Assembly: GCA_030648005.1 (NCBI GenBank) | Contig: JAUSIP010000001.1 | Location: 6,662-70,661, forward strand | DNA: 64,000 bases | Origin: a bacterium | GTDB taxonomy: Bacteria > Patescibacteriota > Minisyncoccia > Phycocordibacterales > UBA12445 | Reading direction: 5' to 3' | Part shown: in pieces, positions 2,710 through 60,616 of the stretch | How positions within the stretch are numbered: the first letter of the stretch is position 1 | How the letters are laid out: the number at the start of each line of letters is the position of its first letter | Made by a program: the position numbers and the translations under genes | Notes under the pieces: model-generated | Databases searched by the model: none | What the model was told of the DNA's origin: nothing | What the model saw: only the letters and a program-made list of their open reading frames with translations

Positions 2710-2722
2710 ATGTACCTATTAT

Positions 2723-2781
2723 AGTCCCGATTTTGATCTAAGTCAAAACCGGGATCCTCGATTCGATGAATCGAATCGGGA
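2723..2781. repeat. miniature inverted-repeat element, copy 1 (TIRs GTCCCGATT / AATCGGGAC)
   Basis: Perfect 9-bp terminal inverted repeats; the internal CGGGATCCTCGATTCGATGAATCGAATCGGGAC is the reverse complement of the element at 53662..53696. Confidence 0.7.
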
Positions 2782-22685: not shown

Positions 22686-22793
22686 GGCCCTATCGTTCCC
22701 GATTTTATTACGATTTCGTTACAGCGAAATCTCCATAAAATCGAGGATCCTCGACCCTGTGGGGTCGGGACTATCGGTTAGGACACGGCCTTT
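22686..22793 (+). pseudogene. orphan tRNA-Glu 5' half (to the anticodon loop) interrupted in the D-arm by a MITE
   Basis: GGCCCTATCGT + 75-bp element + CTATCGGTTAGGACACGGCCTTT is identical to positions 1-34 of tRNA-Glu at 22931; no 3' half follows. Confidence 0.7.
22697..22771. repeat. miniature inverted-repeat element, copy 2 (TCCCGATTTT...GGGGTCGGGAC)
   Basis: Shares its ends and the internal ATCGAGGATCC core with the copies at 2723 and 53662. Confidence 0.7.
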
Positions 22794-22915
22794 GAGAGGT
22801 GAGGATGGGGTAAGGGGTCCCATCCGCAAGACCTTTTGAGGTAGTTTGCGAGCTAGTGAAGCAAAATATCCAAAAGGTGTACTGCTCCCGTAGGGAGGGA
22901 AACGCAGTGAGGCAT
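22794..22915 (+). ncRNA. conserved structured element X between the orphan 5' half and tRNA-Glu
   Basis: GAGGTGAGG-hairpin-CGCAAGACCTTTTGAG...AATATCCAAAAGGTGTACTG-hairpin. A homolog lies upstream of tRNA-Gly (33021..33122) and shows compensatory hairpin changes. Confidence 0.5.
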
Positions 22916-22930
22916 TTTAAAAAACTATAC

Positions 22931-23002: not shown

Positions 23003-23139
23003 TTGCGAAGCAAGGAGACTAAGTGAATGAACTGCTTCATTCACGCCAGAGAGTCGAAGCCCGATTGAGATAGTTTATGATTCCGAGTTTATCGAGGAAG
23101 AAATAAAATATCCAATTGGGGTACTGTTCCTGTAAGGAA

Positions 23140-23158
23140 CGACTCTCTGTAGGGTCAT
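23140..23158 (+). repeat. direct orphan copy of the tRNA-Glu 3' end (CGACTCTCTGTAGGGTCAT)
   Basis: 19-nt identity with 22984..23003; preceded by the GGGTACTG-hairpin motif. Confidence 0.8.
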
Positions 23159-24155: not shown

Positions 24156-24229
24156 GCGCGTGTAGCTCAGGTGGTTAGAGCGTTACATTGACATTGTAAA
24201 GGCCCCTGGTTCGAGTCCAGGCATGCGCA
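24156..24229 (+). tRNA. tRNA-Val (anticodon GAC)
   Basis: Hand fold: acceptor GCGCGTG/CATGCGC, D-arm GCTCAGGTGGTTAGAGC, loop TTGACAT, T-arm CCTGGTTCGAGTCCAGG. Confidence 0.85.
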
Positions 24230-24249
24230 CAACGAACGAAGTGAGGCGG

Positions 24250-24270
24250 GCACATGCCTGGACTCGAACC
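24250..24270 (+). repeat. inverted copy of the tRNA-Val T-arm/acceptor 3' strand (GCACATGCCTGGACTCGAACC)
   Basis: Reverse complement of 24209..24228 with one mismatch. Confidence 0.8.
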
Positions 24271-24349
24271 TCGAAAGGGGCCGGGAAAACTGTAGTTTTC
24301 CCGTGGAGGAAGGATTGGGAAAACCGTGGGTTTCCCAGTGTGTGAGTAC

Positions 24350-24364
24350 TCCAGGCATGCGCAC
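24350..24364 (+). repeat. direct orphan copy of the tRNA-Val 3' end (TCCAGGCATGCGCAC)
   Basis: 15-nt identity with 24216..24230. Confidence 0.8.
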
Positions 24365-24374
24365 CAGAATAATC

Positions 24375-29698: not shown

Positions 29699-29703
29699 AA
29701 AAA

Positions 29704-29725
29704 ATCCCCATAAGGGGATTTTTAC
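29704..29725 (+). terminator. hairpin terminator after tRNA-Phe
   Basis: ATCCCCATAAGGGGAT plus T5. Confidence 0.65.
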
Positions 29726-29943
29726 TTGCCGAGGGAGAACGCCAACTGCTTGGCGTTCGTGCGGATTTGAAAGCCACAGCCATGTCCCATGGGGACAGGC
29801 GAGGCGGGGTCGAGAGTACTTAGTCCGCGCAATTTCGCTTTAGCGAAATGAGCAGACTTAGTAACTCGTGACCTAATCCCCCGAAGCTTGGTAAGGACAA
29901 TTTATTTGGAATTAAAATCGGCATAATTAAACAACCGGTTGTT

Positions 29944-29957
29944 CCCTCGGCACCAAA
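29944..29957 (+). repeat. direct orphan copy of the tRNA-Phe 3' end (CCCTCGGCACCAAA)
   Basis: 14-nt identity with 29685..29698+; preceded by the palindrome AACAACCGGTTGTT. Confidence 0.7.
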
Positions 29958-30102
29958 TTTTATCCTTGTTTTGTAACGCTGAAAAATTGACGGTGTGGTG
30001 GAGTTGGAACTTAAGTTAGCTTAGGTTGACTGTGTTCATATATAAATGTTAGTTTAGATGTGGACTGTTTTTGGATAATTGACAATCATCGGAGGTCAAG
30101 TG

Positions 30103-30686: not shown

Positions 30687-30740
30687 AAAAAAAACTCGAA
30701 GTGAGTCTTCCTATACAGGAAGACTCACTTCGAGTTTTTG
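30687..30740. repeat. 45-bp perfect hairpin repeat, copy 1 (19-bp stem ACTCGAAGTGAGTCTTCCT)
   Basis: Near-identical copy at 44118..44170; flanked by A/T runs, so it can act as a bidirectional terminator. Confidence 0.8.
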
Positions 30741-30746
30741 GGACTT

Positions 30747-31055: not shown

Positions 31056-31654
31056 TAATTATATAATAACAAAAAAAGACCCCGGGGACAATCCCGGGGC
31101 CACAACCTCGCATGCTTAGCTAGCTACTCCTTTGACTACTTCGACCTCAGCCTTTTTTCTGCTCGATGCTCTCTTGCCACCAGATAAGATACCGGCACCA
31201 AGTACAAAACCGAAGTTATACCAACCACCATTGTTATGAACCTCATACAGACACACATCACTCGAGAAAAGCGAAATGATCCATGTGATCGGCGCGATTA
31301 TTCCGTGCTACAGACCGAGCCAGAACCCAGCAATATTTCCGTCCGAAGCTGGAACATTCACCGTAGTATTTGGACCGGGGGTACAACCAGTCAGAAGCAG
31401 TACCCCACCCAAGAACAATAGACCGAGCAAGTGTGTTTTCCTCATTGTTCCATCCTTCGAGTTAGAAACGTACACGATCTAGAGAATAGAGTATCATTTA
31501 TATTAAATAAGTCAATAACAAGGAATCTCGCCCTACGGGCGCTGGTACTTTTCGCTCCGATATCCATCGGAGAACGAAAAGTCTTTCGATTCCCCGGCGC
31601 AGGCAAAGCAGTTTGCCTGCTCGGGAGCACAAAAAACCGCTCCGCTCTTGTTTG

Positions 31655-32367: not shown

Positions 32368-32823
32368 TTACAGGTGACTGCTGGTCTCGGCAGTCGGCTG
32401 TCCGACAACCCCGTCCGTAGGCATGGATATGTCGAGCACCAGGTTCTCACAGGCCTTCGTCCATTCGGGTGTTCCCTGGTGATAAGCCTCGATCTTGCCC
32501 TTCTCCATCTGCCAAGAATTGCTGGGATTCAGATCGTCGAAGTCATATTCCAGATGAGAGATCCTTAGACCACGGAAGCTATTGAATCTTACGATCCAGA
32601 GCTTGTCGTTGTATCGGACCACATCTCCCGGCTTCAGGCTTCTAACCGTCTCGCCGTTCAGCATGGTCTGATGACCCTTACGCGCCCGTTCCCGAGCCTC
32701 GTCCATCTGCTCGGCTGGAGAGCGGGTATCCTTGTTGTGGAAGACCTCGCCAACAAGAACAAGGCAAAACAAGAGATAGATCATTATATAAAGAAGCTCC
32801 CACACCTTTTGACCCAGAGACAT
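32368..32823 (-). CDS. hypothetical membrane-anchored protein (GC-elevated)
   Basis: 151 aa, N-terminal TM helix; no family recognised. Confidence 0.45.
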   Translation of the reverse strand: MSLGQKVWELLYIMIYLLFCLVLVGEVFHNKDTRSPAEQMDEARERARKGHQTMLNGETVRSLKPGDVVRYNDKLWIVRFNSFRGLRISHLEYDFDDLNPSNSWQMEKGKIEAYHQGTPEWTKACENLVLDISMPTDGVVGQPTAETSSHL

Positions 32824-33010: not shown

Positions 33011-33020
33011 TTTTCTAAAT

Positions 33021-33156
33021 TAAATCTCATCCTTACAGGATCTGTACACCTTTTGGATATATTCTCGCACAAACTCAAATATATCTCAAAAGGTCTTGCG
33101 GCGCTAAGCGCGCCTCACCTCAGGAAGGTCGCATCCTACCACTGAACTATACCCGC
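33021..33156 (-). ncRNA. orphan tRNA 5' half (GCGGGTATAGTTCAGTGGTAGGATGCGACCTTCC) fused to conserved structured element X, immediately upstream of tRNA-Gly
   Basis: Minus-strand sequence TGAGGTGAGG-GGCGCGCTTAGCGCC-GCAAGACCTTTTGAG...AATATATCCAAAAGGTGTACAG-ATCCTGTAAGGAT is homologous to 22794..22915. Confidence 0.55.
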
Positions 33157-33163
33157 TTAAAAA

Positions 33164-44117: not shown

Positions 44118-44170
44118 AAAAACTCGAAGTGAGTCTTCCTATATAGGAAGACTCACTTCGAGTTTTTTTA
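44118..44170. repeat. 45-bp perfect hairpin repeat, copy 2
   Basis: Identical 19-bp stem to copy 1; loop ATATA; followed by T7. Confidence 0.8.
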
Positions 44171-49379: not shown

Positions 49380-50873
49380 TTACTTCTCCAAATCAAGCTC
49401 TTCATCTATGCGGATCTCAGCCACAAACTCCGGCACGTGGCTTACTAATATCATAGCACCTTCATACTTATTGAGTGCTTCGGCGATGATAGGCAAGTGG
49501 CGGAAATTAATATGGTTAGTCGGCTCGTCGAGTATAAGCAGACCCGGCTTCTGAAGCACGAGGCGAGCGAAAGCTACCAAGCCCTTCTGCCCCTCTGATA
49601 GACTGCCGATCTTGCTGTGCATAAGATCACCGGTGATGAGAAACCCCGCAGCAGTGCCTCGCATCGCATGTTCATCAGACTTCTTCATAATAGACAGAAG
49701 CGAATCAAAGACAGTATCTTCGAAGTTAAGCGTGGAGAAATCTTGACGGTAATAACCGACAACTGTGTCCTTCGCGATAACCGAACCGGAAGCTGTGCCC
49801 TTAGCAATAGCCTCAAGTAGAGTGGACTTGCCGATGCCATTTGGACCTTTCAAAAGCAAGTGCTGATTCTTACGAAGTGTAAGACTGGCCTTGTGTTTAA
49901 CAATCGGATTCGCGACCTTACCCTTCTTCGAGACGTGAGGATTAGTGCTTATAGTATTAAATTCAGTGATACTAAGTATCGTACCGGACAGATCCGTCTG
50001 TGAAGGAATAATGAAGGGGCGGATAGTCCTGTCCTCCTTTCTCGTATCCACCTTACTCTCCTCAAGCTCCTCTGCTAAATCGCGCATACGCTTGGCAACC
50101 AAACGCATCTGACCGCCCTTATTAGCGAAAGAGTTGGCCTTATCCTTCTTCTCTTGTATCTGCTTCTCCAACTGGGCATTCTGCCTATTCTCCCTCTCCA
50201 CTCGAGCAGAGATCTCTCTAACGACATTGAAATAGTTGCCGGTGTACTGCTCAACTTTCTTAGTGAAGATATCCAGATACAAAACTCCGTCGGTGAAAGC
50301 GTTGAGGAAGTCCGAATCGTGCGAAATGACAATCACAGTCTTGGTATAATTCTTCAAGAACTGCGTGAGATGCGCGATCCCCGCTTTGTCTAAGTTGTTG
50401 GTCGGCTCATCAAGTAGAAGCAGATCAGGATCTTGTATCAGTGCCGAAGCCAGAAGAAGTCGTGCCTGCTGTCCGCCGGAGAAGGAACGGACGATGCGGT
50501 CATGCAACTTTTCATGGCCTTTCAAATTCACAACTTCAAGCACTTCGTCTATCTTGGGATCGATGTCGTAGATTTTATCTGCAAACTGCCTTTCGAAAAA
50601 TTCGCGGACAGTCAGGTCAAGCATATCGCGTGGGATGATCTGTCTCGCGAGCGCAATAGTCAGACCATGCGAAAGAAAGACATCGCCAGAGTCCGGCTTC
50701 AGACCACCAGTAATAAGCTGAAAGATAGTACTCTTCCCTCCACCGTTCTGCCCCATGACCGTGATCTTGGAGTTCTTGCGAACAGAGAAAGAGACCGCAT
50801 CCAGAATGGGCTTGTTCTCTTCGTATTGAAAGCCGGCGTCTTCAAACCGGAGTATCACTTCGTCTTTTGCCAT
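49380..50873 (-). CDS. ABC-F family ATPase (two ABC domains, no TMD)
   Basis: Two Walker A/B sets and a linker between domains. Confidence 0.85.
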   Translation of the reverse strand: MAKDEVILRFEDAGFQYEENKPILDAVSFSVRKNSKITVMGQNGGGKSTIFQLITGGLKPDSGDVFLSHGLTIALARQIIPRDMLDLTVREFFERQFADKIYDIDPKIDEVLEVVNLKGHEKLHDRIVRSFSGGQQARLLLASALIQDPDLLLLDEPTNNLDKAGIAHLTQFLKNYTKTVIVISHDSDFLNAFTDGVLYLDIFTKKVEQYTGNYFNVVREISARVERENRQNAQLEKQIQEKKDKANSFANKGGQMRLVAKRMRDLAEELEESKVDTRKEDRTIRPFIIPSQTDLSGTILSITEFNTISTNPHVSKKGKVANPIVKHKASLTLRKNQHLLLKGPNGIGKSTLLEAIAKGTASGSVIAKDTVVGYYRQDFSTLNFEDTVFDSLLSIMKKSDEHAMRGTAAGFLITGDLMHSKIGSLSEGQKGLVAFARLVLQKPGLLILDEPTNHINFRHLPIIAEALNKYEGAMILVSHVPEFVAEIRIDEELDLEK

Positions 50874-50950
50874 GGCCTAGAGCCTAACACAAATTTGACA
50901 AAAAGAAAAACCACCAATCTAATTGGTGGTAGGGGTAAGAATGAGAGAAT

Positions 50951-51487
50951 TTAGACACAATCTGTGGCGGATATAATCGCTCGGCCATAGAGAGCTTTGG
51001 TTATCTTATCCTCACTGCCGTACTTTCGGAAACCAGTATCATCTCTTACTGAAGGATTCCGCTCTTCCAATTCCTTGAAGTATTCCTTCCAGTCAAACAC
51101 CTTCTTCGGAGGAGCCTTCGTGATGATACTCTGAGGGTAAAGGATGTCCAATTTCGTGCCATCAGTCTTCTGACACTTAAACGTAATCGGCAAACCATGA
51201 CTTCGCAAACCATCAGGTTTCAACCAGCCCGCGACCCTATCAAAAAGAACTCCAATCACCTTGTATCTATTCCCAGTGAAAAACTTATTATCTCGTCCAA
51301 GAGATCTAGCAGTATCTCCTCTAATCCATCCTTCAACCACTCCCCAAACTTCAAGAATGTCCCCCTCCCCGCAAACAGGTAGTGAGATCCCATTGCTCTC
51401 GCACTGTAATGCCTGCTTGTCGTCTAGAAAGAGAAACCCACAGAACTGACACATGAAGACGACGGGGCGTCTGATTACAAGTGGCAT
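50951..51487 (-). CDS. hypothetical protein with N-terminal CxxC zinc-ribbon
   Basis: Overlaps the upstream ORF by 13 nt (operon). Confidence 0.45.
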   Translation of the reverse strand: MPLVIRRPVVFMCQFCGFLFLDDKQALQCESNGISLPVCGEGDILEVWGVVEGWIRGDTARSLGRDNKFFTGNRYKVIGVLFDRVAGWLKPDGLRSHGLPITFKCQKTDGTKLDILYPQSIITKAPPKKVFDWKEYFKELEERNPSVRDDTGFRKYGSEDKITKALYGRAIISATDCV

Positions 51488-51732
51488 GATTTTCCTCCTT
51501 CAGGTGGTGTGTGTACGAGGTGCCATGTGAGCCATGGGACATGCTTTTTGACGAGCGCGTTCAGATCGGGATAGACCATGATCGTGAAGAGGCCGAATGG
51601 GTGCTTGTATCTCTTCTTCACCATCTTGGCGGCTTTATTTACATTCTTTGCCTCCACAAATGCTATGTCCATATCAGAATGCGTGGGCGCGGCATAGCTG
51701 TAGGTGACTACGCAGAATTCTAGCATGAGCAC
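51475..51732 (-). CDS. hypothetical small protein
   Basis: Overlaps both neighbours by 13 nt; could start at the internal M. Confidence 0.35.
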   Translation of the reverse strand: MLMLEFCVVTYSYAAPTHSDMDIAFVEAKNVNKAAKMVKKRYKHPFGLFTIMVYPDLNALVKKHVPWLTWHLVHTPPEGGKSCHL

Positions 51733-52340
51733 CTTCTTTTCTGGGTATCATGATTAGGAATCTCGATATGCGAAACAGGAACCCACTTCATTGGCCCACG
51801 GACTTTATGACAATGTTCAGCTGAGATCTCGAGAGCATCAATGACGATCTTAGCGGGATCCATCTGCCCGAAGTCAGCACTCAGATAAGCATGATGCATG
51901 GCGCCAAGAGCATAAGAGAACCCCACCCCTATAGCGGCGAAGGGTAAGGCCGGATCTTGAATAGAATAATTCATGCCAATTTCATAAACCCAATTTCTAT
52001 AACAGATAAGAAAATTTGATCCTATCTCTTCCTCACCAGCCTTGTAATTACCTCTCTTGAAAAGCTTCTGCATGGCAGGAACCATCTTCAAGATTAGAAA
52101 ATTGCGATTGACCTCCCTATCGAGAGTTAGCTCCTTCTGCTCGGGCAACCTAAGAGATCTCATCAAATCTGCCGCGCGATAATCACCATCAAAGGCAATC
52201 ATAACATCCGGACTCTTAACCTGCTTGATTTTGAAGAATTTCACATCATTTCTTGTTGCGGCGTTATCGCCATAAGTACAGAGCGAGTCAGCGCCGACAA
52301 CTGTGAGATTATTGTGAACCAGCGCCACGACGCAAGTCAT
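51720..52340 (-). CDS. proteasome-family (HslV-like) N-terminal-nucleophile threonine peptidase
   Basis: MTCVVAL...VVGADS, IAFDGD, AIGVGFSYALGAM parallel the HslV motifs TTIVSV...IAGDGQ, AGFAGGTAD, AIGSGGPYA. Confidence 0.6.
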   Translation of the reverse strand: MTCVVALVHNNLTVVGADSLCTYGDNAATRNDVKFFKIKQVKSPDVMIAFDGDYRAADLMRSLRLPEQKELTLDREVNRNFLILKMVPAMQKLFKRGNYKAGEEEIGSNFLICYRNWVYEIGMNYSIQDPALPFAAIGVGFSYALGAMHHAYLSADFGQMDPAKIVIDALEISAEHCHKVRGPMKWVPVSHIEIPNHDTQKRRCSC

Positions 52341-52398
52341 AGGAACCCCTCCCTATATCAAAAAAACATTGTTCTAAACTCAAACTATCAAAAATGTC

Positions 52399-52857
52399 CT
52401 ATGATGTAAATGTCGAGGATTTCGGCGCGACCCTGGCGCCGATCACGACCGCCAGCGCGGCGATCAAGATATTTTTTATAATATACTGACCTTCAAGAGT
52501 TGGAACTAGAAGTCCTTGCCATGTAATATCCGACAAAAGTAAAAGTGGCATAGCAGTAGTGACCAGGTGTAAGCAGAGGAAAAATATCGCCACCCGTTCT
52601 AGTCCGGTGATAAGGAACAGTATACCGATCGTCATCTCATAAATCGCAAATAAAGTATAAAAGAGAGTAAAAGGCATGAAGCCTATTGTCTTATCAAAAA
52701 GAGCAAGCACAAGCGGGCCAGCCGGACTCGCACCGATAAGCTTCAAAGCTCCGAACCAGAAGTAAACAATAAAGATCGCTGTCCGCGCCATAGGTACCTC
52801 CAGCCTTCGAAGATGGGAGATCACCCTCGCGTCAATTTTATGGAACCGTTCTTGCAT
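52399..52857 (-). CDS. DoxX-like small membrane protein
   Basis: Four predicted TM helices; an internal start is possible. Confidence 0.4.
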   Translation of the reverse strand: MQERFHKIDARVISHLRRLEVPMARTAIFIVYFWFGALKLIGASPAGPLVLALFDKTIGFMPFTLFYTLFAIYEMTIGILFLITGLERVAIFFLCLHLVTTAMPLLLLSDITWQGLLVPTLEGQYIIKNILIAALAVVIGARVAPKSSTFTS

Positions 52858-52892
52858 AGAATTAATTATAACATATTGATTTTGATTTAATA

Positions 52893-52918
52893 AAAAAAAC
52901 CCCGATGACCATCGGGGG
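52893..52918 (-). terminator. rho-independent terminator
   Basis: CCCCGATG/CATCGGGG stem plus T8 on the minus strand. Confidence 0.8.
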
Positions 52919-52924
52919 CGCTAG

Positions 52925-53278
52925 CTAATTTACATTGGATGGTGGTAGCGGATTATCCTGTGGCTCAGCTTCGGGGATTTCTTCAACTATCTCGCTGTGT
53001 TCATCCTGAATGTTTTCATATCTAACCTTAACCACGAGCATATCTGCATGGTTTGATTTAAGAACCGGGTCAACAGCCACAAACAGAGCATAGTCGTCAA
53101 ACAACAACTTCAATATAGCCCACCTTCTGTCTTCGGGAATCTCACCCATCCTCTGCTTACTTCTCCATTCACCATCCAACCCCTCTAGAGCTTCAATGAA
53201 CGTCTCGAACTCCTCAATTTTTTTAAAATTTGGAGGTTCTCTCCCACTCCAGAGTGGTATCCTTTTTGGTCTGTACAT
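52925..53278 (-). CDS. hypothetical protein
   Basis: Start ATG 53278 with RBS GGAGG. Confidence 0.45.
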   Translation of the reverse strand: MYRPKRIPLWSGREPPNFKKIEEFETFIEALEGLDGEWRSKQRMGEIPEDRRWAILKLLFDDYALFVAVDPVLKSNHADMLVVKVRYENIQDEHSEIVEEIPEAEPQDNPLPPSNVN

Positions 53279-53359
53279 GACAACCTCCCAACAGTTAGTT
53301 ATCAATCAACTACCCTTTCATAAAATAACATTTTATGGATAGCCTGGGCAAGTTAGTGT

Positions 53360-53545
53360 CTAGTTTTTCCAATGGAGTACAATCTCAAAATAAAGGAAGA
53401 GTGCCCCGGTGACTGCCCAAGATAGGATCTCGAAGATTATCGGCTTGAAATTTATTTTATGCAGGGTCATTGCGAGTGATCCGAAAACAACTATCAGCAC
53501 GGCGAGTAATACAATCAACTCTTTCTGTGTTTCTATCACGCTCAA
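53360..53545 (-). CDS. hypothetical small membrane protein
   Basis: 61 aa, two TM helices. Confidence 0.35.
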   Translation of the reverse strand: MSVIETQKELIVLLAVLIVVFGSLAMTLHKINFKPIIFEILSWAVTGALFLYFEIVLHWKN

Positions 53546-53661
53546 CCTCTCCTTTTGGAATTTCTAAACTAACCTTACCAAATATTTATATATTATAAAA
53601 GACCCCCATCTTTTGCTTTTTTAGTAATAATTTGATATATTTTACTTCATATTCCTCGGTA

Positions 53662-53708
53662 GTCCCGATTCGATTCATCGAATCGAGGATCCCGACAGGG
53701 GTCGGGAC
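53662..53708. repeat. miniature inverted-repeat element, copy 3, inserted in an orphan tRNA-Asn 5' fragment
   Basis: GTCCCGATTCGATTCATCGAATCGAGGATCCCGACAGGGGTCGGGAC, flanked by TCCTCGGTA and TCAGTGGTTTAGTTGTTAAC (tRNA-Asn positions 1-9 and roughly 12-38). Confidence 0.75.
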
Positions 53709-53735
53709 TCAGTGGTTTAGTTGTTAACTTAATAT

Positions 53736-53810
53736 TCCTCGGTAGCTCAGTGGTAGAGCAGCTCGCTGTTAACGAGTTGGTCGTAGGTTCGAATCCTACC
53801 CGGGGAGCCA
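53736..53810 (+). tRNA. tRNA-Asn (anticodon GTT), CCA encoded
   Basis: Hand fold: acceptor TCCTCGG/CCGGGGA, loop CTGTTAA, T-arm GTAGGTTCGAATCCTAC. Confidence 0.85.
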
Positions 53811-53948
53811 AGTGAGCGAAGCGAACGCTCCACGAGCAAGCAAACTGCTTTGCTTGCGTGGTAGGATTCGAAAAGGTTCTCCGTTATCCGATGGCAATCG
53901 GATCGGAAACCTGTACCGTTCATGTAATGAAAGAATCCTTCTAAAAAA

Positions 53949-54566
53949 ATGAAAAACCCCAAAGTAATAATCTACGACAACGACGGAATGATCTGCCATA
54001 GTGGCCGATTTAGCGACAGTTATTCTAAGGAGTTTGGGATTGAGATGGATATAATGAGTCCCTTTTTCGAAGGACCATTTAAAAACTGTCTCGTTGGAAA
54101 AGCAGACCTGAAAGAGGAGTTAGAAAAAGTTTTAGATATATGGAACTGGAAAGGGACAGCCAACCAGCTTCTTGATTACTGGTTTTCAGTAGGAAGCACG
54201 CTCGACGAGAAAGTTTTCCCTACTATTTCAAAATTTAAAGATCAAGGTCTAATAGTATGTCTGGCAACTAATCAGGAAAAATATCGAAAAGAATATTTAG
54301 TTACAAAATTTGGATACGACAAAGTATTTAATGAAATCTTTTCTTCTGCAGAACTAGGCGCTTATAAGAACAGCGAGAAGGGTCTCCAAAAAACTTTCGA
54401 CATCTTGAAAGATAAATATGGCATTGAAGATAGAGACGAGATCATGTACTGGGATGACCGAGAAGGAAATGTTGAACATATAAATCAGTTTGGTATGAAC
54501 GGTCAGCATTATAAAAATTATGAGGAGTTTAGGGATGTAATGGCCGGTCTTGGCTACTTAGTTTAA
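53949..54566 (+). CDS. HAD-superfamily hydrolase
   Basis: IIYDNDGMI (motif I), LATNQ, WDD. Confidence 0.6.
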   Translation: MKNPKVIIYDNDGMICHSGRFSDSYSKEFGIEMDIMSPFFEGPFKNCLVGKADLKEELEKVLDIWNWKGTANQLLDYWFSVGSTLDEKVFPTISKFKDQGLIVCLATNQEKYRKEYLVTKFGYDKVFNEIFSSAELGAYKNSEKGLQKTFDILKDKYGIEDRDEIMYWDDREGNVEHINQFGMNGQHYKNYEEFRDVMAGLGYLV

Positions 54567-54570
54567 TTTT

Positions 54571-54972
54571 ATGCAAAATAAAACAACTCACGAATCATTT
54601 GTTTTAAGACAATCCACACTTCCAAGTGCAGGAATCGGAGTGATTACCTTACACGACATAGCCAAGGGTACATATATGGAGCTTTTTCGTGATGGTTTTG
54701 AGGAGGAAATTAGGGATGAGTCTGATGTGCCGAAGCCACTCAGGGCATACTGTCTCTATCAGGGTAATGGCAAGATCTTATGTCCAAAAATGTTCAATCG
54801 TATGGATATCGGAAATTATCTCAATCACTCAGAGAACTGGAATATGGTCTATGAAAAAGGCAGGGGTTACTTTGCTTCTCGAGATATTAGAGCCGGAGAG
54901 GAACTCTTTGCCAACTATAGAGATCTGGGAGAGCCCGAAGACCAGAGAGAGGAGTATTACAAGGTGCATTAA
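54571..54972 (+). CDS. SET-domain protein (putative lysine methyltransferase)
   Basis: NHSENWN and GEELFANY motifs. Confidence 0.6.
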   Translation: MQNKTTHESFVLRQSTLPSAGIGVITLHDIAKGTYMELFRDGFEEEIRDESDVPKPLRAYCLYQGNGKILCPKMFNRMDIGNYLNHSENWNMVYEKGRGYFASRDIRAGEELFANYRDLGEPEDQREEYYKVH

Positions 54973-55043
54973 TACTTTGACCTTCAGCATTTCTTGGAGC
55001 AGAGCGAGTACGATGCGAAAGGTGTACTGTTCCCGTAATGAAA

Positions 55044-55061
55044 GAATCCTACCCGGGGAGC
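55044..55061 (+). repeat. direct orphan copy of the tRNA-Asn 3' end (GAATCCTACCCGGGGAGC)
   Basis: 18-nt identity with 53791..53808; preceded by the GGTGTACTG-hairpin motif. Confidence 0.8.
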
Positions 55062-55073
55062 AAAAATAAAATA

Positions 55074-56483
55074 CTATCTTTGGTAGTGTGTTGAATTTTT
55101 AAATTCCCAGTTACCGACCGAGCAAGAACCGTCCTGATGCTCGATCTGTAATTCACTTGCACTTGTAAGTTGTACTATAATTCTACCGCTCGTTATTCCT
55201 CGCTCATTATTCCTGTACTGATGATTTCCATCATTGTCATAGCAATAAGTAGAACCCGGCACAACTTCATTAAATTTTCTATTTATATTTCCCAATGAAT
55301 TAGCTGTAAATATCCATTTGGTCGGCTGAGAAACAAACATTCCACTTGTTGATATAACAGATTCACCAGAGAACCTATTGTTCAATCCAAAGTGGAGTAA
55401 TTTACCCCAGTCGGCGGGCCTCATTGGAGACGCGTTTCCAATAAACCAATCGCCCTGTAAAGTCCCGGTAATATCATGTTCAACAGTTCCACAATTACCC
55501 TTTGCTGTTGGTTCAAGTTTTGCCAAAAGCTGTTCTCTAAGTGGAGAAGAAAAATAATTATAAGGACAAGTTGAGTGTTTTGTCAGAAAGCCGTGTCTCG
55601 ATGGACTTATAAAAGAATGCGTGACGCGTAAATCCCATGTGCCAAAATTGAAATTCCCCTGCATCCTACCCACGGTGCCAAGCGGTGTTCCCTCTACTAT
55701 TTTATTCAAAACCATTACAGGACAATTGTTACTACCCGGCGAATCACTTGAATTCGGACATTTATATTCATCAACAATCTTCTTCAGTACTGGCGAAAAA
55801 CCCTTGATGTGATCAACGACACCAAACACGTCCTTGCAAAACGCATATTTAATTGTGTGATCTTCGGGATCCTGAGTAGCTCCATATCTTGGGGTTATCA
55901 AAATAATCCACATATCTCCGGGTGCTACAAGCGGTGTCGTTTGAGTTGTTCCTTGACCATTAACTGCTATGTAAGTATCCGAACTAATACTTGCGAGAGT
56001 ATGTTCTGGAGGGTTTGCTGATCCGATAGGCTCAATACCCACTATAGAGTCAAGAGGAACGGGGGATGTCTTCATCAATACATTTTCACAATCAGGAAGC
56101 AGAGCTCGCTCTTCGTCAGAAAGAATCTCCCACCCCAGACGCTTTTTTATCAGATCCTCGGGCTTATTGCTAAACCCGTGGTTTACCCAATTTACAATAT
56201 CCTCCACTCTAACTTCTTTTTTGTTACCAGAATCTTGCGGTGTTTGATTTATCGGGGCAACTTTTGGAAGTTCCGCTACGCCAATATCTTGCCGGGGAAC
56301 TTCTTTCTCACTCTCTTTCTCACTCTCAGTCGCTACTTTCACTACAGGCTTATCTGTATCTAATTTCTTAATCTCTTTTACTCCGTGATTCGAATATAAA
56401 TATCCACTGGCAATTAAAAATACGGTAACAAAACTAATAATAATGACAGGGGCAAACCCTCTTTTATAACAAATTATTTTCAT
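55074..56483 (-). CDS. secreted/anchored hypothetical protein
   Basis: 469 aa with an N-terminal TM/signal anchor. Confidence 0.5.
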   Translation of the reverse strand: MKIICYKRGFAPVIIISFVTVFLIASGYLYSNHGVKEIKKLDTDKPVVKVATESEKESEKEVPRQDIGVAELPKVAPINQTPQDSGNKKEVRVEDIVNWVNHGFSNKPEDLIKKRLGWEILSDEERALLPDCENVLMKTSPVPLDSIVGIEPIGSANPPEHTLASISSDTYIAVNGQGTTQTTPLVAPGDMWIILITPRYGATQDPEDHTIKYAFCKDVFGVVDHIKGFSPVLKKIVDEYKCPNSSDSPGSNNCPVMVLNKIVEGTPLGTVGRMQGNFNFGTWDLRVTHSFISPSRHGFLTKHSTCPYNYFSSPLREQLLAKLEPTAKGNCGTVEHDITGTLQGDWFIGNASPMRPADWGKLLHFGLNNRFSGESVISTSGMFVSQPTKWIFTANSLGNINRKFNEVVPGSTYCYDNDGNHQYRNNERGITSGRIIVQLTSASELQIEHQDGSCSVGNWEFKNSTHYQR

Positions 56484-56799
56484 ATGAATATACTATCATG
56501 AAGTAAACTTGCAACCGGCCTCATTATCCACAAATTAAATAGCGAAACATTAGTGAGAATAATCATTTTTTGTTACTCTTCTAATTATGCTAAACGGCCA
56601 AAAAATTCTTGTCTACGCGCCGTTTGATAGCGAGATCTCTGATATTAGTTCACGGGAAGATTTCGGTTATGATGTTTAGCTTACTGTATAGAGAACTCAT
56701 ATAGTCCTTGTTGGATAAAATTGTTATAATATTCTCTTGTTCGAGGAGCCAGAAAAACGCCGCGAGATTCCAGAATGAAAATGGTGTAGAATAATAACT

Positions 56800-57291
56800 G
56801 TGACTATCAACAATGCATTCAAACTTATCATTGCCATTGCGGTTTCCGAGCTGGCCGGTATCATCGGTTCGGTGTTTACGATTCCGTCCGTTGCCGGTTG
56901 GTACGCCGGGATTGTAAAGCCGGCTCTCAATCCACCGGCGTGGGTGTTCGGGCCGGTCTGGACGACACTATTCGCGCTTATGGGTATCGCGGCGTTCCTG
57001 ATCTGTTCCTCCTACGCTGAAGCTTCGGCGGATAAAAAGAAAGGGATTAAGGTGGCGTTGATATTGTTTGGCATCCAGCTGGTGCTCAACACGCTATGGT
57101 CGATTATCTTTTTCGGCCTGCACAGCCCAGGCGGCGCGCTTGTTGAGATCATATTCCTTTGGCTCGCTATCCTCGCTACAATCATTGCCTTCGCGAAGAT
57201 CTCAAGACCGGCGGCATGGCTTCTGGTGCCCTACATTCTTTGGGTCAGTTTCGCAATGTATCTGAATTATGCGATCTGGTCGTTGAATTGA
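56800..57291 (+). CDS. tspO: TspO/MBR tryptophan-rich sensory protein
   Basis: Five TM helices, GWYAGIVKPALNPPAWVFGPVWTTLF. Confidence 0.8.
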   Translation: MTINNAFKLIIAIAVSELAGIIGSVFTIPSVAGWYAGIVKPALNPPAWVFGPVWTTLFALMGIAAFLICSSYAEASADKKKGIKVALILFGIQLVLNTLWSIIFFGLHSPGGALVEIIFLWLAILATIIAFAKISRPAAWLLVPYILWVSFAMYLNYAIWSLN

Positions 57292-57684
57292 ACAGGGAGA
57301 AAATATTGAAGGAGTACTGGTGGCTGGTCCCATTTACCGAGAAATTCCTACCCAAGTATCTTTACTATCCAACCCACAAATGTTAGCTTGTGGACGGAAG
57401 ACGGCGTACTGCGATTGCAGTTGTCATAAGAAAGAAAAAGAATTACAAACAGAAAGTAACAAAGGAGGAGAATAAAGATGTCTAGCGGTATGGCCAGAAG
57501 CGGCCGGAGAACTTCGAGCCTTCAAGCGAGCACTTCAGCTAAGAGCGGGTATTACCGCCGCTCAGCTTGAGATGGCTCTGCAATTGGCAGAAGTAGAATT
57601 TAAAAGATTGAAAAATTCAAAGTAGAGATATTTTTGTACAGCCACCCAAAATAGGGTGGCTTTTTTCTTTTATTTAAAATTATC

Positions 57685-57936
57685 TCACCGATGAGTACAC
57701 CCGGCCCAACAGCAAGGCCGGCGCATTCCGCCCTTAAGTTTTGACATCGCTTTCTCGATACGGATATTCCTAGTCTCCTCTTTCTTGCCGGACGTAACCC
57801 AGCATATCCATTCGTTGCGAGCGAGCGGGGTGATATCTTCCCATACTTCCAGCGCCCTAGGTGTTGCTATGAGAGCCTCGCGTAAATCCGCCGGTAGTCT
57901 ATGTACTGTGCCGGAGGCGACACCTTTTTTAATCAT
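57685..57936 (-). CDS. YdeI/OmdA-domain protein
   Basis: LREALIATPRALEVWEDITPLARNEWICWV. Confidence 0.55.
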   Translation of the reverse strand: MIKKGVASGTVHRLPADLREALIATPRALEVWEDITPLARNEWICWVTSGKKEETRNIRIEKAMSKLKGGMRRPCCWAGCTHR

Positions 57937-57953
57937 AACTTAATTTTACCAGA

Positions 57954-59252
57954 CTATTCCTTCTTTCCAAGCGAAAACCAATCTGTATTACGGGTCATAT
58001 ACATGACTGCGGCCAGGATCATGAAGAGGAAGAGTGAACCGGCAATGAGTGCGTAGTCTTCAAGATGAAGTATGAAGTAGAGATAAGCATAGAGTGTTGT
58101 GAGGAGTGCGAAGATCGGGAAGGCGCGCCGCCTGCTCTTCAGAACAAATGCGCTGTATGATGTTATAAGAAAAGCTATCATAGTAGTCGCCAAGAGATAT
58201 GCGGGCGTGAATCCGATCTGTTCTGTGAGAGAGAGCAGGAGGAGGTAGAAGAGCGCAAGTGCGGAGCCAACGAGAAGATACTGTATAGGATGTACATGTA
58301 CACCAGCGAGTACATCAAAGAGGAAGTAAGCGGCGAAAGTTAGAACGATGAAGAGAATTGCATATTTTACTGCGCGTTGAACCATGTCATATGTATCGAT
58401 TCCCGGATGAAGATCTACCCCGGCCGCCGATCCGGCGAATTGCAGGAGATCGAGCTTCTCTCCCTGCCAAGTAGCCGGATACGAGCGACCAAGTGAAGAA
58501 AGATGCCATTCGGAAATGAAACCGTCTTTTGTTATTTCACGAGAGGTCGGGAGGAATTTGCCGACGAATTTAGGATTAGGCCACAATGAAGCAATAGAGA
58601 GACTTGTCTCGGTTCCGAGAGGTGCGATCAAAATCCCCTCACTCCCCTTCAGTTTAAGTTCGAACGAGAACGGGATCTTTGCACTACCGCTAATCGGCAC
58701 AGCGACATGGAGACCGGAGCTGTTCAGCGTTTCAAAGCCGGAACCGGGCTCAAAGGCAAACGAAGTGCCCCTCCAGTTGAGATCAAATTGTCTCTCGATA
58801 CCGCGCGTGTCAGTGATCTCAACCGCAAGCGTTGCATTATAAATACCACGGGAAGTAAGCGAGCGCATGTCATCCGGTGAGAATTCGCCCGAAACCTTGA
58901 CCTTACTCACGTAGACGACCGACTTGAAAATGCCTCGCGAACGTACTTCTGGCTCAAGAACCGTCTCGTAGTTTAAGATTGCAGGAAGGACGTAGGCCTT
59001 CTCAAGGTAGCTTGACGTGCCTCGCACAACTGATACTTCGGCAATAAGCATTGGGCCGACTATCGTCTGACGTTCACCCCAGCCCTGTGCGATCTCACTC
59101 TTGGCTTCGTCCGCCCTGTGTTGCCGCTCTTCTACGAGCCCCATCACAAGAAGACTCGCCACAAAACAGGCTACGCCGATAATACCGATAGCTAATACTT
59201 TTATTGATATAGTGTCAGTCATAATGTTTCTATAACTTACGCTCCCACTCAC
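57954..59252 (-). CDS. creD: CreD-family inner membrane protein
   Basis: N-terminal TM helix, large periplasmic region, C-terminal multi-TM block. Confidence 0.65.
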   Translation of the reverse strand: MSGSVSYRNIMTDTISIKVLAIGIIGVACFVASLLVMGLVEERQHRADEAKSEIAQGWGERQTIVGPMLIAEVSVVRGTSSYLEKAYVLPAILNYETVLEPEVRSRGIFKSVVYVSKVKVSGEFSPDDMRSLTSRGIYNATLAVEITDTRGIERQFDLNWRGTSFAFEPGSGFETLNSSGLHVAVPISGSAKIPFSFELKLKGSEGILIAPLGTETSLSIASLWPNPKFVGKFLPTSREITKDGFISEWHLSSLGRSYPATWQGEKLDLLQFAGSAAGVDLHPGIDTYDMVQRAVKYAILFIVLTFAAYFLFDVLAGVHVHPIQYLLVGSALALFYLLLLSLTEQIGFTPAYLLATTMIAFLITSYSAFVLKSRRRAFPIFALLTTLYAYLYFILHLEDYALIAGSLFLFMILAAVMYMTRNTDWFSLGKKE

Positions 59253-59312
59253 AGGTTACAGAGCAAATAAAGAAACCGCCTATTGGCGGTTATTTTTCCG
59301 CCAGCTGGCGGA

Positions 59313-59636
59313 TTACACCTCCTTCTTCTTATAGAAAGTTACTTCCACTTTAAACCTTTTATCTTTAGGGTGATTATTAACGAAATAGGCAGCCACTTTT
59401 TCTACAAAATCTTTTCCATATTTATTGGCCAGATAAAGACAGTGATACAAATCTTCTCCCGAGGCGGTTCCAATCTTTTCAAATTCCGAAGTTTGTTCCT
59501 GATTTAGAAGTATGATTTGTCGTTCCTCCAGCAACTTTCCATTCTTTTCTTTCTTCATCAGAAGACCTTTTACATTCTCCTTAAAAGAAGTTATTTGATG
59601 CCTAGAAACGACATCTAGACTTGCCTTGCTTTTCAT
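59313..59636 (-). CDS. hypothetical protein
   Basis: 107-aa ORF. Confidence 0.4.
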   Translation of the reverse strand: MKSKASLDVVSRHQITSFKENVKGLLMKKEKNGKLLEERQIILLNQEQTSEFEKIGTASGEDLYHCLYLANKYGKDFVEKVAAYFVNNHPKDKRFKVEVTFYKKKEV

Positions 59637-59758
59637 AACACCCCCTTTTTTCTCCCCTTATCCTATTCTAAATATCCGATAAAAGCTAGCGCGGAATCAA
59701 ACAGGATATAAAAAAACCGCTCTTTCGAGCGGGGTGAGTTACAACGAATACCTTCTTT

Positions 59759-60616
59759 CTAGAACAGTTCCCATGCGGTAGGATGTTCTTGGATCTTTCT
59801 CATGGCCTTAAACTGGATCTGTCTGACTCTCTCACGACACACACCGAGCATCTTGCCAATAGTGTCAAGTGTTCTTGGTTTATTATCTTCCAGACCAAAC
59901 CGGAGATCGATCACCATCTTCTCTATTTTAGAGAGGATCTTAAGGATAAGAGACCTGAACTGCTCACGAGCCACCTTCTTGATCGCCTGATCTTCCGGAG
60001 AAGGACGGTCGTCGGACAGCACAGCTCTCAAGGATGCGTTATCAGTATTATCATTCGCAGATCCTGAAGACATTAGCCTATCCAACGAAACCGGATCTCG
60101 ATCGAGATTCTCCATCTCGATCTCACGAACATCGTCGACTGTCATTCCCAGCTCTCTCGCAATAACCTCAGGTGTTTGATCTAGCCCATTATTCATCTTT
60201 CTCCATTCCTCCTTATACATGAAGACCTTAGAAACCTGATCGCTCTTGTAGACGGGAAGTGTTATTGTCCTAGATCCGGTAGCTATTGCTCTGCGGACCG
60301 CCTGTTTGATCCACCAAGTTGCATAGGTCGAGAACCTAAGACCACGGGCCCAGTCAAACTTCTTGACCGCCCTCATGAGGCCCATATTACCCTCCTGAAT
60401 AAGATCAAGGAAGGACAGGCTCTTAGAATTTTTGATCTGTTTCTTGTATTTTTTGGCGACCGAGATCACCAGTCGAAGATTCGCCCTGATCAACGATGCC
60501 TTAGCCTGTTCGTCACCTTCCGCGGTCTTCCGCGCCAACTCTCGCTCCTCATCTGAAGACACCAGACGATGCTGGCCTATCGCCACCATATAACCCACTG
60601 TTTCAATGTCCACCAT
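59759..60616 (-). CDS. RNA polymerase sigma-70 family factor (primary-like, compact)
   Basis: Region 2 FSTYATWWIKQAVRRAI, region 4 LGVCRERVRQIQFKAMRKI. Confidence 0.85.
   Translation of the reverse strand: MVDIETVGYMVAIGQHRLVSSDEERELARKTAEGDEQAKASLIRANLRLVISVAKKYKKQIKNSKSLSFLDLIQEGNMGLMRAVKKFDWARGLRFSTYATWWIKQAVRRAIATGSRTITLPVYKSDQVSKVFMYKEEWRKMNNGLDQTPEVIARELGMTVDDVREIEMENLDRDPVSLDRLMSSGSANDNTDNASLRAVLSDDRPSPEDQAIKKVAREQFRSLILKILSKIEKMVIDLRFGLEDNKPRTLDTIGKMLGVCRERVRQIQFKAMRKIQEHPTAWELF

Follow-up and report, generated by a model that had tools for sequence, protein, structure and literature searches.

Structured repeats that mirror tRNA 3' ends, and a lineage-specific gene pair bracketed by such repeats at tRNA-Asn, in a Patescibacteria genome

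Insertion into tRNA genes is one of the classic ways in which genes are gained. We know of little work on how genes are gained and shuffled in the tiny, recombinase-poor genomes of Patescibacteria. In a 64-kb stretch of DNA from this phylum (the window), a lineage-specific gene pair is bracketed by repeats of a tRNA 3' end, which raises the question of how the pair came to lie there. An earlier note on the locus had read it as a small cargo element, integrated at tRNA-Asn and lacking a recombinase of its own. We examined the repeats, the two genes and the equivalent loci of related genomes.

Repeats at the tRNA-Asn locus

The tRNA-Asn(GTT) gene was confirmed as intact by ARAGORN and by Rfam (RF00005, 71.8 bits), with the CCA encoded (53736..53810, + strand). 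Its nucleotides 57-74, from the T-loop to the discriminator base, recur as an orphan at 55044..55061 (+). This 18-nt sequence, GAATCCTACCCGGGGAGC, was matched at 18/18 positions, as had been claimed, and at exactly two places in the window (53791-53808 and 55044-55061); about 0.04 matches are expected by chance, even with 3 mismatches permitted. The orphan ends 12 nt from the stop codon of a conserved neighbour gene of 469 aa (55074..56483, - strand; no Pfam family), with which the lineage-specific stretch ends. As in tRNA-gene islands, an intact tRNA-Asn thus forms one boundary of the locus, and the other carries a direct repeat of the 3' part of that tRNA. The direct copy begins at G57 in the T-loop, with the same start at Glu and Arg, and the T-loop is one of the canonical sublocations of repeat boundaries in such islands, beside the anticodon loop and the 3' end. 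No significant tRNA similarity was detected upstream of the 18-nt copy (shuffle p = 0.6). A reading of the bracketing motif as a decayed tRNA 3' half was rejected, its similarity being insignificant.

Several small structures follow the tRNA. A linker with hairpin H0 (53811..53835, +; RNA fold) contains GCTCCAC, which is partly complementary to the acceptor 3' strand; this anti-acceptor is clearer at the same place in the Arg and Phe modules described below. It is followed by hairpin H1 with a 9-bp stem and a CTGC loop (53836..53857, +; GCAAGCAAA-CTGC-TTTGCTTGC), and by a stretch that copies the T-loop and the T-stem 3' strand of tRNA-Asn in inverted orientation (inverted repeat I1, GGTAGGATTCGAA; 53860..53872, +). 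Next comes unit a (53873..53939, +), composed of H2, an invariant GTAC, H3 (TTCAT-GTA-ATGAA) and a T-loop copy, GAATCCT. Unit b lies beyond the gene pair (54979..55043, +) and comprises H2b (GACCTT...AAGGT), GTAC and a decayed H3b (TTCCC-GTA-ATGAA) with two broken pairs; it has no inverted partner of its own. The two units contain the copies of a 39-nt direct repeat, D1a (53901-53939) in unit a and D1b (55012-55050) in unit b, which are 82% identical. A 15-mer of this repeat, GTAATGAAAGAATCC, was found at just its two copies.

Units a and b have 16 exact nucleotides in common (GTAATGAAAGAATCCT) and split right after GAATCCT, into TCTAAAAAA... in one case versus ACCCGGGGAGC in the other. The base of H2 differs by a swap from GG/CC to CC/GG that keeps the pairing, and unit b belongs to a subtype (AAAGGTGTACTG) that recurs at the Glu and Gly tRNAs. 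Judging by their 82% identity, the paired swap in H2 and the subtype of unit b, the two units did not arise by a recent local duplication.

GAATCCT thus occurs three times as a core at this locus, once within the T-loop of the tRNA and once at the end of each unit. The second core is followed on its right by the gene pair, the third by what remains of the tRNA 3' end and then by the conserved neighbour gene. An independent Logan contig (run SRR13727527) shows this arrangement too, with motif, HAD, SET, the motif joined to the 18-nt copy, and the 469-aa gene in that order. Exact look-ups of the SET and 469-aa proteins returned one 3.2-kb contig from the same organism as the sole match, and a scan of viral contigs for the junction of motif and tRNA 3' end gave no match.

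The bracketed genes and their relatives

The first gene encodes a putative HAD-like phosphatase of 205 aa (53949..54566, +). Its profile matches were all below cut-off: 17.3 and 17.4 bits for Pfam HAD_2 and Hydrolase (cut-offs 23.8 and 26.4) and 30.8 bits for NCBIfam HAD-IIIC (cut-off 35.75). The assignment came from DNDG (DxDG) and WDD (DD) motifs in the translation and from 140 homologues, many of which, at 42-77% identity, carry PF00702/PF13419. The second gene (54571..54972, +; 133 aa) begins 4 nt past the HAD stop codon. Its product is a predicted member of the SET-domain methyltransferase family, with 38.2 bits against PF00856 (gathering cut-off 22.4) and NHS (NHSENWN) and EELFANY (GEELFANY; ELxxxY) motifs. 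Of the proposed pair of a HAD hydrolase and a SET-domain gene between the repeats, SET was upheld by a profile above cut-off, and HAD is suggested by motifs and homologues.

The SET protein had been called unusual cargo for a bacterium. We found 54 homologues at 55-74% identity, mainly metagenome proteins, and the few with names belong to Patescibacteria/CPR; SET proteins of about 130 aa are therefore not unusual in the phylum. Viral vSET and the Methanosarcina SET protein are known minimal SET proteins. The protein described here resembles minimal SET proteins in its size, in consisting of the SET domain alone and in its NHS and ELxxxY catalytic motifs, and differs in that its gene stands in a pair with a HAD-like gene, as in none of the relatives examined. 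Minimal bacterial and archaeal SET-domain proteins have been reviewed (PMC3980110). Sequence searches of the PDB with SET and HAD were uninformative, SET being without a sequence-detectable solved structure, and a literature search combining Patescibacteria with the SET domain returned no paper.

Base composition, which if typical would count against a cassette, pointed both ways. The HAD-like ORF had the lowest GC of 51 ORFs (0.371, about 2 sd below the window mean of 0.452), in keeping with a cassette, while the GC of SET was ordinary (0.420).

We then compared the tRNA-Asn loci of three related genomes (L014, L015 and L025). The flanking genes were kept and HAD and SET were absent, in agreement with the lineage-specific nature of the pair. 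The relatives are only 55-80% identical at the protein level, too distant for the junctions to be aligned, so this absence is judged by gene order and tRNA flanks. Homologues of the 469-aa gene lie 1.6-1.8 kb from tRNA-Asn in L014 and L015, and the genes in the slot between the two differ from genome to genome. Around tRNA-Asn, L014, L015, L025 and the window also differ in how their genes are ordered and oriented. In related genomes, HAD and SET homologues were found in other contexts, at eight other loci, and never adjacent to each other: HAD in the order dnaA-dnaN-...-HAD-PBP or in another context with a NUDIX gene alongside, and SET in three others. We also considered an inversion of the tRNA-HAD-SET segment, since flipping it makes all genes co-directional as in L025 and L026. 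It was not adopted because the boundary repeats are direct, not inverted.

The ORFs between the repeats are HAD-like and SET only, with no other of integrase length, so that the segment indeed has no recombinase of its own. A cognate integrase encoded elsewhere, as the earlier note envisaged, was not found in the 64-kb window. Among the roughly 60 ORFs scanned (nearly all of those of at least 130 aa, plus some shorter ones near the locus), none matched an integrase, transposase or reverse transcriptase in Pfam, and the window likewise yielded no HUH or Xer-type gene.

A module family behind tRNA genes

The structures behind tRNA-Asn proved to be one case of a wider family, which is a more interesting result than the gene pair. 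A structured module of about 130 nt lies behind five of the seven tRNAs of the window (Asn, Arg, Glu, Val and Phe), in the order linker, H1 with its CTGC loop, inverted T-arm copy, H2, invariant GTAC, H3 and direct copy of the T-loop 3' part. Each module copies the T-loop-to-3' end of its own tRNA twice, once inverted and once direct. A complement and a copy of the last 7-23 nt of that tRNA are present, with structured DNA between them. Inverted T-arm copies matching the local tRNA are also present at Glu, Val, Phe and Arg. At Glu, Val, Phe and Asn unit b, the direct copy comprises the entire 3' end of the tRNA. At Arg and Phe the complement of the tRNA end is split by H1 exactly between its T-stem and acceptor parts. 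The module tail (the H2-GTAC-H3 motif) was also found at the Arg, Glu and Gly tRNA loci, and Val retains GTAC alone. In all, at least six tRNA loci carry the dispersed repeats; at the five other than Asn the module measures about 130-260 nt and has no cargo.

This distribution changes how two features of the locus are read. The motif copies of about 30 nt do bracket the gene pair, yet they are not cassette-specific terminal repeats, being the tail of a dispersed, tRNA-linked module; likewise, the CTGC hairpin and the inverted T-arm copy at 53860..53872 are present as reported, but as parts of the module found behind other tRNAs and not as cassette features. Taken literally, the model of the earlier note is a classical island, brought by an integrase to the tRNA 3' end and since decayed to 1.2 kb, with the motif as its terminal repeat. 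It agrees with the lineage-specific content and with the tRNA 3' end being directly repeated at the far boundary. We nevertheless consider it improbable, given that the motif is not island-specific, that the same module occurs without cargo at five other tRNA loci, and that no integrase gene, nor any ORF of such length besides HAD and SET, was detected.

The folding of the modules is conserved. Four copies of H1 occur in the window (Glu, Phe, Asn and Arg) and every pair forms in each of them, with compensatory changes in six of the nine pairs; none of 500 shuffles reached the observed score. The pairing of H3 is likewise kept through compensatory changes between copies. Compared with shuffled sequence, the modules folded with z = -3.3 to -5.9. 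In four of the eight module segments, the sense strand folded 5-10 kcal/mol better than the antisense strand, with more G-U pairs, and P1, H2 and H3 are predicted to form a three-way junction of tRNA-like topology. An alignment of whole module units with MAFFT was too poor in H2 for a covariance model, and explicit pattern and pairing scans were therefore used.

With permissive thresholds, Rfam gave tRNAs and noise alone and did not match the modules, on which basis known ribozymes, group I introns, YrlA and tmRNA were rejected. Literature searches found no description of the family. A viral scan for ATATCCAAWWGGKGTAC gave 92 matches, all attributable to chance, apparently within coding sequence and with the H3 hairpin absent. 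In related genomes, the module was absent at tRNA-Asn (L014, L015, L025 and L026), at tRNA-Glu (L119) and at tRNA-Val (L120); because these genomes lack it at the tRNA loci compared, the comparison suggests that the modules are dispensable and recently gained. One case of the family was found at a non-orthologous tRNA of another genome (L119). A metagenome scan with the tRNA-Asn sequence returned two loci, neither of them with a module, and a scan for the tRNA-Asn 3' half returned just unrelated high-GC contigs.

Conserved folding raises the possibility that the modules are functional RNA, either a co-transcribed structured 3' trailer acting as a processing signal or a leader of the next gene; HAD-SET would then merely lie downstream, and unit b would be a decaying relic of another copy. 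The compensatory changes in H1 and H3, the better fold of the sense strand and the tRNA-like topology would all fit such a role. So would the position of the module tail, 9-17 nt before the start codons of TrhO (at Glu), TsaD (at Val) and HAD (at Asn), and the fact that no promoter-like or terminator-like site was found between tRNA-Asn and HAD. At tRNA-Phe, however, a canonical terminator precedes the module, and no Rfam family matches. The modules are also missing from the tRNA loci compared in relatives. An RNA role leaves unexplained how similar modules came to lie at six loci, and why at four places (Glu, Val, Phe and Asn unit b) the direct copy takes in the whole 3' end of the tRNA. On balance we regard a functional RNA as rather doubtful. 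If the modules are RNAs, they represent a new class of tRNA-linked structured RNA.

A second alternative dispenses with mobile elements: local duplication and unequal crossing-over would have produced the repeats, and HAD-SET would have arrived by ordinary rearrangement in a poorly syntenic genome. The precedent is the E. coli tyrT-tyrV (rttR/tpr) region, where three tandem 178-bp units (repeat spacing 178, 178) lie just downstream of a tRNA and the proximal one runs about 19 nt into the tRNA-Tyr 3' end, much as the repeats do here. The orphan upstream of tRNA-Asn (see below) resembles a short tandem duplication, and the variable gene order and orientation at this tRNA would also fit. In contrast to the E. 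coli units, which are tandem, periodic and confined to one locus, the modules are dispersed and structured and carry inverted copies; the Asn repeats are spaced 1111-1253 nt apart with unrelated genes between, neither tandem nor periodic. Duplication explains neither the homologous CTGC hairpin and H2-GTAC-H3 at tRNA loci 20-30 kb apart nor the tRNA-specific inverted copies, and the single case at a non-orthologous tRNA in L119 also speaks against it. This alternative is unlikely.

Proposed insertion at the T-loop core, and an upstream orphan

The layout of the Asn locus, with three cores and a displaced 3' end, is what successive site-specific insertions at the T-loop would leave. Our preferred reading, a tentative one that we would put somewhat short of probable, is that successive insertions occurred at the core GAATCCT, by an enzyme that may be encoded elsewhere. 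A mini-module would first have entered tRNA-Asn; the tRNA would have been rebuilt and its former 3' end displaced. A two-gene segment of about 1.1 kb with its own module tail would then have entered the harmless distal core. The enzyme would have to be supplied by another part of the genome or by a helper element. Under this reading the empty site would join the GAATCCT of unit a to ACCCGGGGAGCAAAAAT, and a circular cassette would join that of unit b to TCTAAAAAAATG. The reading builds on the observed repeats, conserved folding, missing modules at comparable tRNA loci of relatives and non-syntenic HAD and SET; from these we infer that recombination gave rise to the junctions, as well as the order of events and any present-day mobility.

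Certain observations stand against successive insertions. Five different tRNA 3' ends would require either one recombinase that serves them all or five element lineages, and no recombinase-type gene was found in the 64 kb. Neither an empty site nor a circular junction was seen. The composition of SET is ordinary, that of HAD is only about 2 sd low, and unit b is without an inverted partner. Module tails directly before start codons also fit an RNA role.

Tyrosine integrases with a crossover in the T-loop give rise to genomic islets and cis-mobilizable elements (CIMEs) at tRNA genes, and Williams reportedly defined, in 2002, sublocation classes of integration in tRNA genes. The Asn locus resembles islets and CIMEs in having an intact tRNA at one end and, at the other, a direct repeat of its 3' part starting in the T-loop, in its lineage-specific content without its own recombinase (as in CIMEs) and in the apparent tandem arrangement of two elements. 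It differs in that no integrase was found in 64 kb, that the element is merely about 130-260 nt at five other tRNAs, that the modules also carry an inverted target copy and that one family serves several tRNAs.

Folded recombination sites are known from integron cassettes (attC) and as CTX-type single-strand attP sites. As in those systems, a promoterless gene segment ends here in a structured site of about 80 nt whose inverted repeats could rebuild a target-like duplex, the repeat boundary falls at a 7-nt core, and several units stand in series at one anchor. Unlike integrons, the locus has a tRNA T-loop as its anchor, unit b lacks an inverted half, no IntI/Xer gene was found in the window, and no GTTRRRY core was noticed by eye. 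What is shared with integrons is a general property only, a structured inverted-repeat site at the cassette 3' end.

The modules might have spread as RNA or single-stranded DNA. One route would be reverse transcription primed from tRNA 3' ends, by which such an end is copied into the element; another, by analogy with integron attC and CTX phage attP, would be a folded strand with a stem that rebuilds the target duplex. The complement and copy of the tRNA end in each module, and the split of the complement at the T-stem/acceptor boundary at Arg and Phe, would suit such a route. A folded single strand, on integration, would also be expected to leave the tRNA end, body, inverted copy, loop and direct copy in this order. 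Yet the search of the window revealed neither a reverse transcriptase nor HUH or Xer-type genes, and the model is one of analogy only. We consider it very improbable.

A broader and speculative version would make the modules new non-autonomous elements for the universal tRNA T-loop, in which the folded strand or RNA, with its copy and complement of the tRNA 3' end, rebuilds the target duplex. Insertion would restore the tRNA, and the harmless distal core would serve as a landing pad for cassettes such as HAD-SET. This would amount to integron-like capture in Patescibacteria by a predicted recombinase, and seems to us unlikely. Whatever their origin, the modules form a family of structured repeats at most tRNA genes of the genome, each mirroring its tRNA's own 3' end, and if they are recombination sites, they define a new gene-capture mechanism. 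The orphan tRNA fragments that they create can mislead annotation and break assemblies, and the Logan contig stops within hairpin H1.

Group I introns of Patescibacteria occupy the 35/36 position of the tRNA anticodon loop, were detected with RF00028 and have been shown to self-splice (PMC13011429). The likeness lies in the phylum and in the invasion of tRNA genes, tRNA-Asn notably, by structured elements that standard annotation misses; the tRNA-Asn described here is, in contrast, continuous. Searches of 52.5-56 kb and 22-34 kb, with E up to 1-5, gave no group I intron match.

A further orphan lies upstream of tRNA-Asn. Its first part (53641..53662, +) consists of 12 nt of the tRNA-Asn leader and tRNA nucleotides 1-10, a 22-nt direct repeat that is 91% identical to 53724-53745. 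Its second part (53708..53716, +; CTCAGTGGT) corresponds to nucleotides 11-19, as seen once a 45-nt insert is removed; the orphan then agrees with the leader and nucleotides 1-19 at 29/31 positions. An orphan 5' fragment is therefore present as reported, with a different extent: it had been thought to reach nucleotide 38, and its apparent GTTAAC "anticodon loop" is part of the second leader copy.

The insert itself (53663..53707, +) splits the orphan between nucleotides 10 and 11. It forms two hairpins, has TCCCGA...TCGGGA ends and folds as DNA at -16.8 kcal/mol (z = -4.3). No target-site duplication flanks it or its relatives and no transposase was found in the 64-kb window, so the earlier designation as a MITE holds for small size, inverted ends and copies and not for these two features. 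It was unique in a near-exact search; because two diverged relatives exist (22698-22770 and 2722-2779(-)), the label MITE-like is defensible. The three copies in 64 kb are 45-73 nt long, with strong hairpins and the same ends, and all of them lie immediately 5' of CT.

A gene pair behind tRNA-Asn

Both ARAGORN and Rfam located an intact tRNA-Asn(GTT) at 53736-53810, as had been read from the sequence. With a repeat finder we detected a 39-nt direct repeat (53901-53939 and 55012-55050, 82% identical), a 21-nt repeat over the tRNA 3' end (53791-53811 and 55044-55064, 18 nt exact), a 22-nt repeat (53641-53662 and 53724-53745) and an inverted repeat between the tRNA 3' end and 53848-53872. The tRNA 3'-end 18-mer and the 15-mer GTAATGAAAGAATCC were each found at two sites in 64 kb, where fewer than 0.2 chance matches are expected. 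The orphan 18-nt tRNA 3' end claimed beyond the gene pair was thus an exact copy and the sole second occurrence. The upstream orphan 5' fragment also exists, but it had been given the wrong extent (nt 1-38): without a 45-nt insert (53663-53707), it corresponded to a 12-nt leader and tRNA nt 1-19, matching at 29 of 31 positions.

Two ORFs lie between the repeats. One encodes a SET-domain protein (PF00856, 38 bits); the other encodes a HAD-like protein with profile scores under the cut-offs, DNDG and WDD motifs, and homologues that carry HAD Pfam domains. A Logan contig that was assembled independently and comes from the same organism, a Patescibacteria (Paceibacteria-like) MAG, had the same arrangement around both genes. 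tRNA, HAD and SET form a plus-strand segment inside a long, nearly all minus-strand gene run, in which TspO is the one other plus-strand gene. Among the roughly 60 ORFs scanned, the window yielded no integrase, transposase or reverse transcriptase, in agreement with the description of the pair as lacking its own recombinase.

The earlier note had held that core-like composition and synteny would speak against a mobile cassette. The GC content of HAD (0.371) was the lowest among 51 ORFs examined (mean 0.452, sd 0.038), while that of SET was ordinary; both genes were non-syntenic in relatives. HAD homologues were found in a dnaA-dnaN-...-HAD-PBP context or in another one with a NUDIX gene beside, SET homologues in three further contexts, and the two were never adjacent in the relatives examined. 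In the proposed presence/absence comparison, judged by gene order and tRNA flanks, HAD and SET were missing beside tRNA-Asn in three fetched loci (L014, L015, L025), and the gene content of the slot from tRNA-Asn to the gene for a 469-aa protein differed genome by genome.

The 469-aa protein, CreD, an 83-aa protein, TspO, an ABC-F ATPase and a sigma factor recurred as tRNA-Asn neighbours in these three loci. Comparison of 49380-60616 with them and with L026 showed that this set (sigma-70 included) was kept, but arranged and oriented differently around the tRNA in every genome compared; tRNA-Asn therefore looks like a pivot for rearrangements. The 469-aa protein belongs to no Pfam family; besides those in Paceibacteria, it has homologues (49-60% identity; L016-L019) in MAGs of DPANN archaea (Woesearchaeota, Micrarchaeota, Aenigmatarchaeota), a cross-domain distribution.

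A family of tRNA-linked modules

The CTGC hairpin, inverted T-arm and ~30-nt motif formerly taken as cassette features were all present, but they belong to a dispersed tRNA-linked module family. Scanning the window for 11-mers of each tRNA picked out Glu, Val and Phe beside Asn, and local alignment brought in Arg as well. At all five, an inverted T-arm copy 20-70 nt downstream is followed by a direct 3'-end copy. Read on the tRNA strand, the module consists of a linker; the acceptor 3'-strand complement (Arg, Phe, weakly Asn); H1, a 9-bp stem with a CTGC loop; a sequence complementary to the T-loop and T-stem 3' strand; H2, a long hairpin; an invariant GTAC; H3, a 5-bp hairpin whose loop is GTA (distinct at Asn, Arg and Glu but missing at Val); and a direct T-loop copy, starting from G57 at Asn, Arg and Glu. 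This last copy is 7 nt long in Asn unit a and Arg but complete to the 3' end in Glu; in Val and Phe it begins at a more 3' position and likewise reaches the tRNA 3' end.

The Glu (23003-23157), Val (24231-24366), Phe (29699-29960) and Arg (31522-31653, minus strand) modules each carry GTAC and two copies, one inverted and one direct, of their own tRNA's T-loop-to-3' end, with a CTGC-loop hairpin in Glu, Phe and Arg. Upstream modules precede tRNA-Glu (22686-22930) and tRNA-Gly (33011-33160, minus strand), where an orphan 5' half ending within the anticodon loop is followed by GAGGTGAGG, a hairpin, CGCAAG, H2-GTAC-H3 and the complete tRNA. With the two arrangements taken together, six of the seven window tRNAs have a module. 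The Gly orphan (GCGGGTATAGTTCAGTGGTAGGATGCGACCTTCC) derives from a different, UCC-like tRNA-Gly and not from the adjacent tRNA-Gly(CCC). The tRNA-Val as annotated (24220-24233) ends GCGCACAACG with no encoded CCA; its orphan copy downstream (24350-24366) reads GCGCACCAG, CCA included, and the module-less relative L120 has GCGCACCC.

All cells of H1 were paired across four copies, with compensatory changes in 6 of 9 pairs. For H3 (six copies), 93% of cells were paired and 4 of 5 pairs showed compensatory changes; broken pairs were confined to Asn unit b. Modules folded far better than shuffled sequence (z -3.3 to -5.9); they are predicted to form a three-way junction, closed where the inverted copy pairs with the direct one. 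An Rfam search gave no match to the family and our literature searches turned up no description of it; it is of greater interest than the cassette.

Origin of the modules

Modules were not found at comparable loci of fetched relatives, namely four tRNA-Asn loci, tRNA-Glu of L119 (80% TrhO identity) and tRNA-Val of L120. Since homologous structured sequence is present at six loci and absent from these, some form of dispersal is required, which purely local duplication, as at E. coli tyrT, does not explain. The L119 tRNA-Glu promoter is identical to the sequence preceding the window's orphan Glu 5' half, which therefore marks the ancestral gene start. L119 also has an orphan tRNA-Ser 5' fragment fused to an 11-bp CTGC-loop hairpin (4450-4502), 115 nt upstream of the real tRNA-Ser, so related repeats exist beyond the window's genome.

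At tRNA-Asn, the gene pair is bracketed by two module tails. Unit a (53873-53939) is canonical and, like the Arg module, ends in GAATCCT. Unit b (54979-55061) comprises H2b and GTAC, then a decayed H3b and the entire 18-nt tRNA end, and occupies nearly all of the gap from the SET stop codon to that of the neighbour gene. Because the units are 82% identical, differ by a pairing-preserving GG/CC to CC/GG swap at the base of H2, and unit b belongs to the AAAGGTGTACTG subtype also seen at Glu and Gly, their sequences indicate that they are not fresh duplicates of one another. The interpretation in the earlier note holds in part: the gene pair at the tRNA 3' end is insertion-like and recombinase-less, but its supposed terminal repeats are members of the module family.

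Both units share 16 exact nt up to GAATCCT and diverge directly after, giving three GAATCCT cores at this locus. From left to right, the first precedes the tRNA end and module, the second HAD-SET, and the third the tRNA end and conserved flank. The simplest reading of this layout is a series of insertions at a T-loop core by an enzyme encoded elsewhere, in which a mini-module would have come first and HAD-SET would have followed into its distal, non-essential core. The complement and copy of each tRNA end suggest, purely by analogy, that a folded single-strand or RNA-guided step may be involved. An RNA role for the modules is a serious alternative or additional possibility, as the sense strand folds better for some modules and module tails adjoin start codons.

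Other repeats and compositional outliers

The insert of the Asn orphan (53663-53707) is a two-hairpin sequence (TCCCGA...TCGGGA) with two further copies, at 2722-2779 (minus strand) and 22698-22770. One separates what look like a gene's promoter hexamers; the other interrupts the D-arm of the orphan tRNA-Glu half, at a position equivalent to that in the Asn orphan. CT directly follows all three copies. In two relatives, L003 (30-495) and L006 (1320-1780), a small GIY-YIG nuclease gene has an orphan tRNA 5' part on one side and a complete tRNA on the other. In L003, 33 nt of tRNA-Glu are duplicated, flanking the nuclease gene and tRNA-Ala, with the anticodon loop flipped in one copy (GAACA vs GTTCA). 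The tRNA-Trp-like orphan of L006 (p for the similarity about 0.016) contains a pair of short palindromic inserts.

A ~46-nt near-perfect palindrome, CTCGAAGTGAGTCTTCCTATATAGGAAGACTCACTTCGAG, occurs at 30690-30745 and 44120-44165. Its Rfam match to a miRNA was spurious; it resembles a bidirectional terminator present more than once, or else a further family of small repeats. The Logan contig (L001, run SRR13727527) terminates inside H1 (window 53832), which suggests that repeated modules break short-read assemblies. Compositional outliers, against a window mean GC of 0.452, were the ORFs at 9813-10415 (GC 0.564, GC3 0.75), 32368-32823 (0.526) and 56800-57291 (TspO, 0.520).
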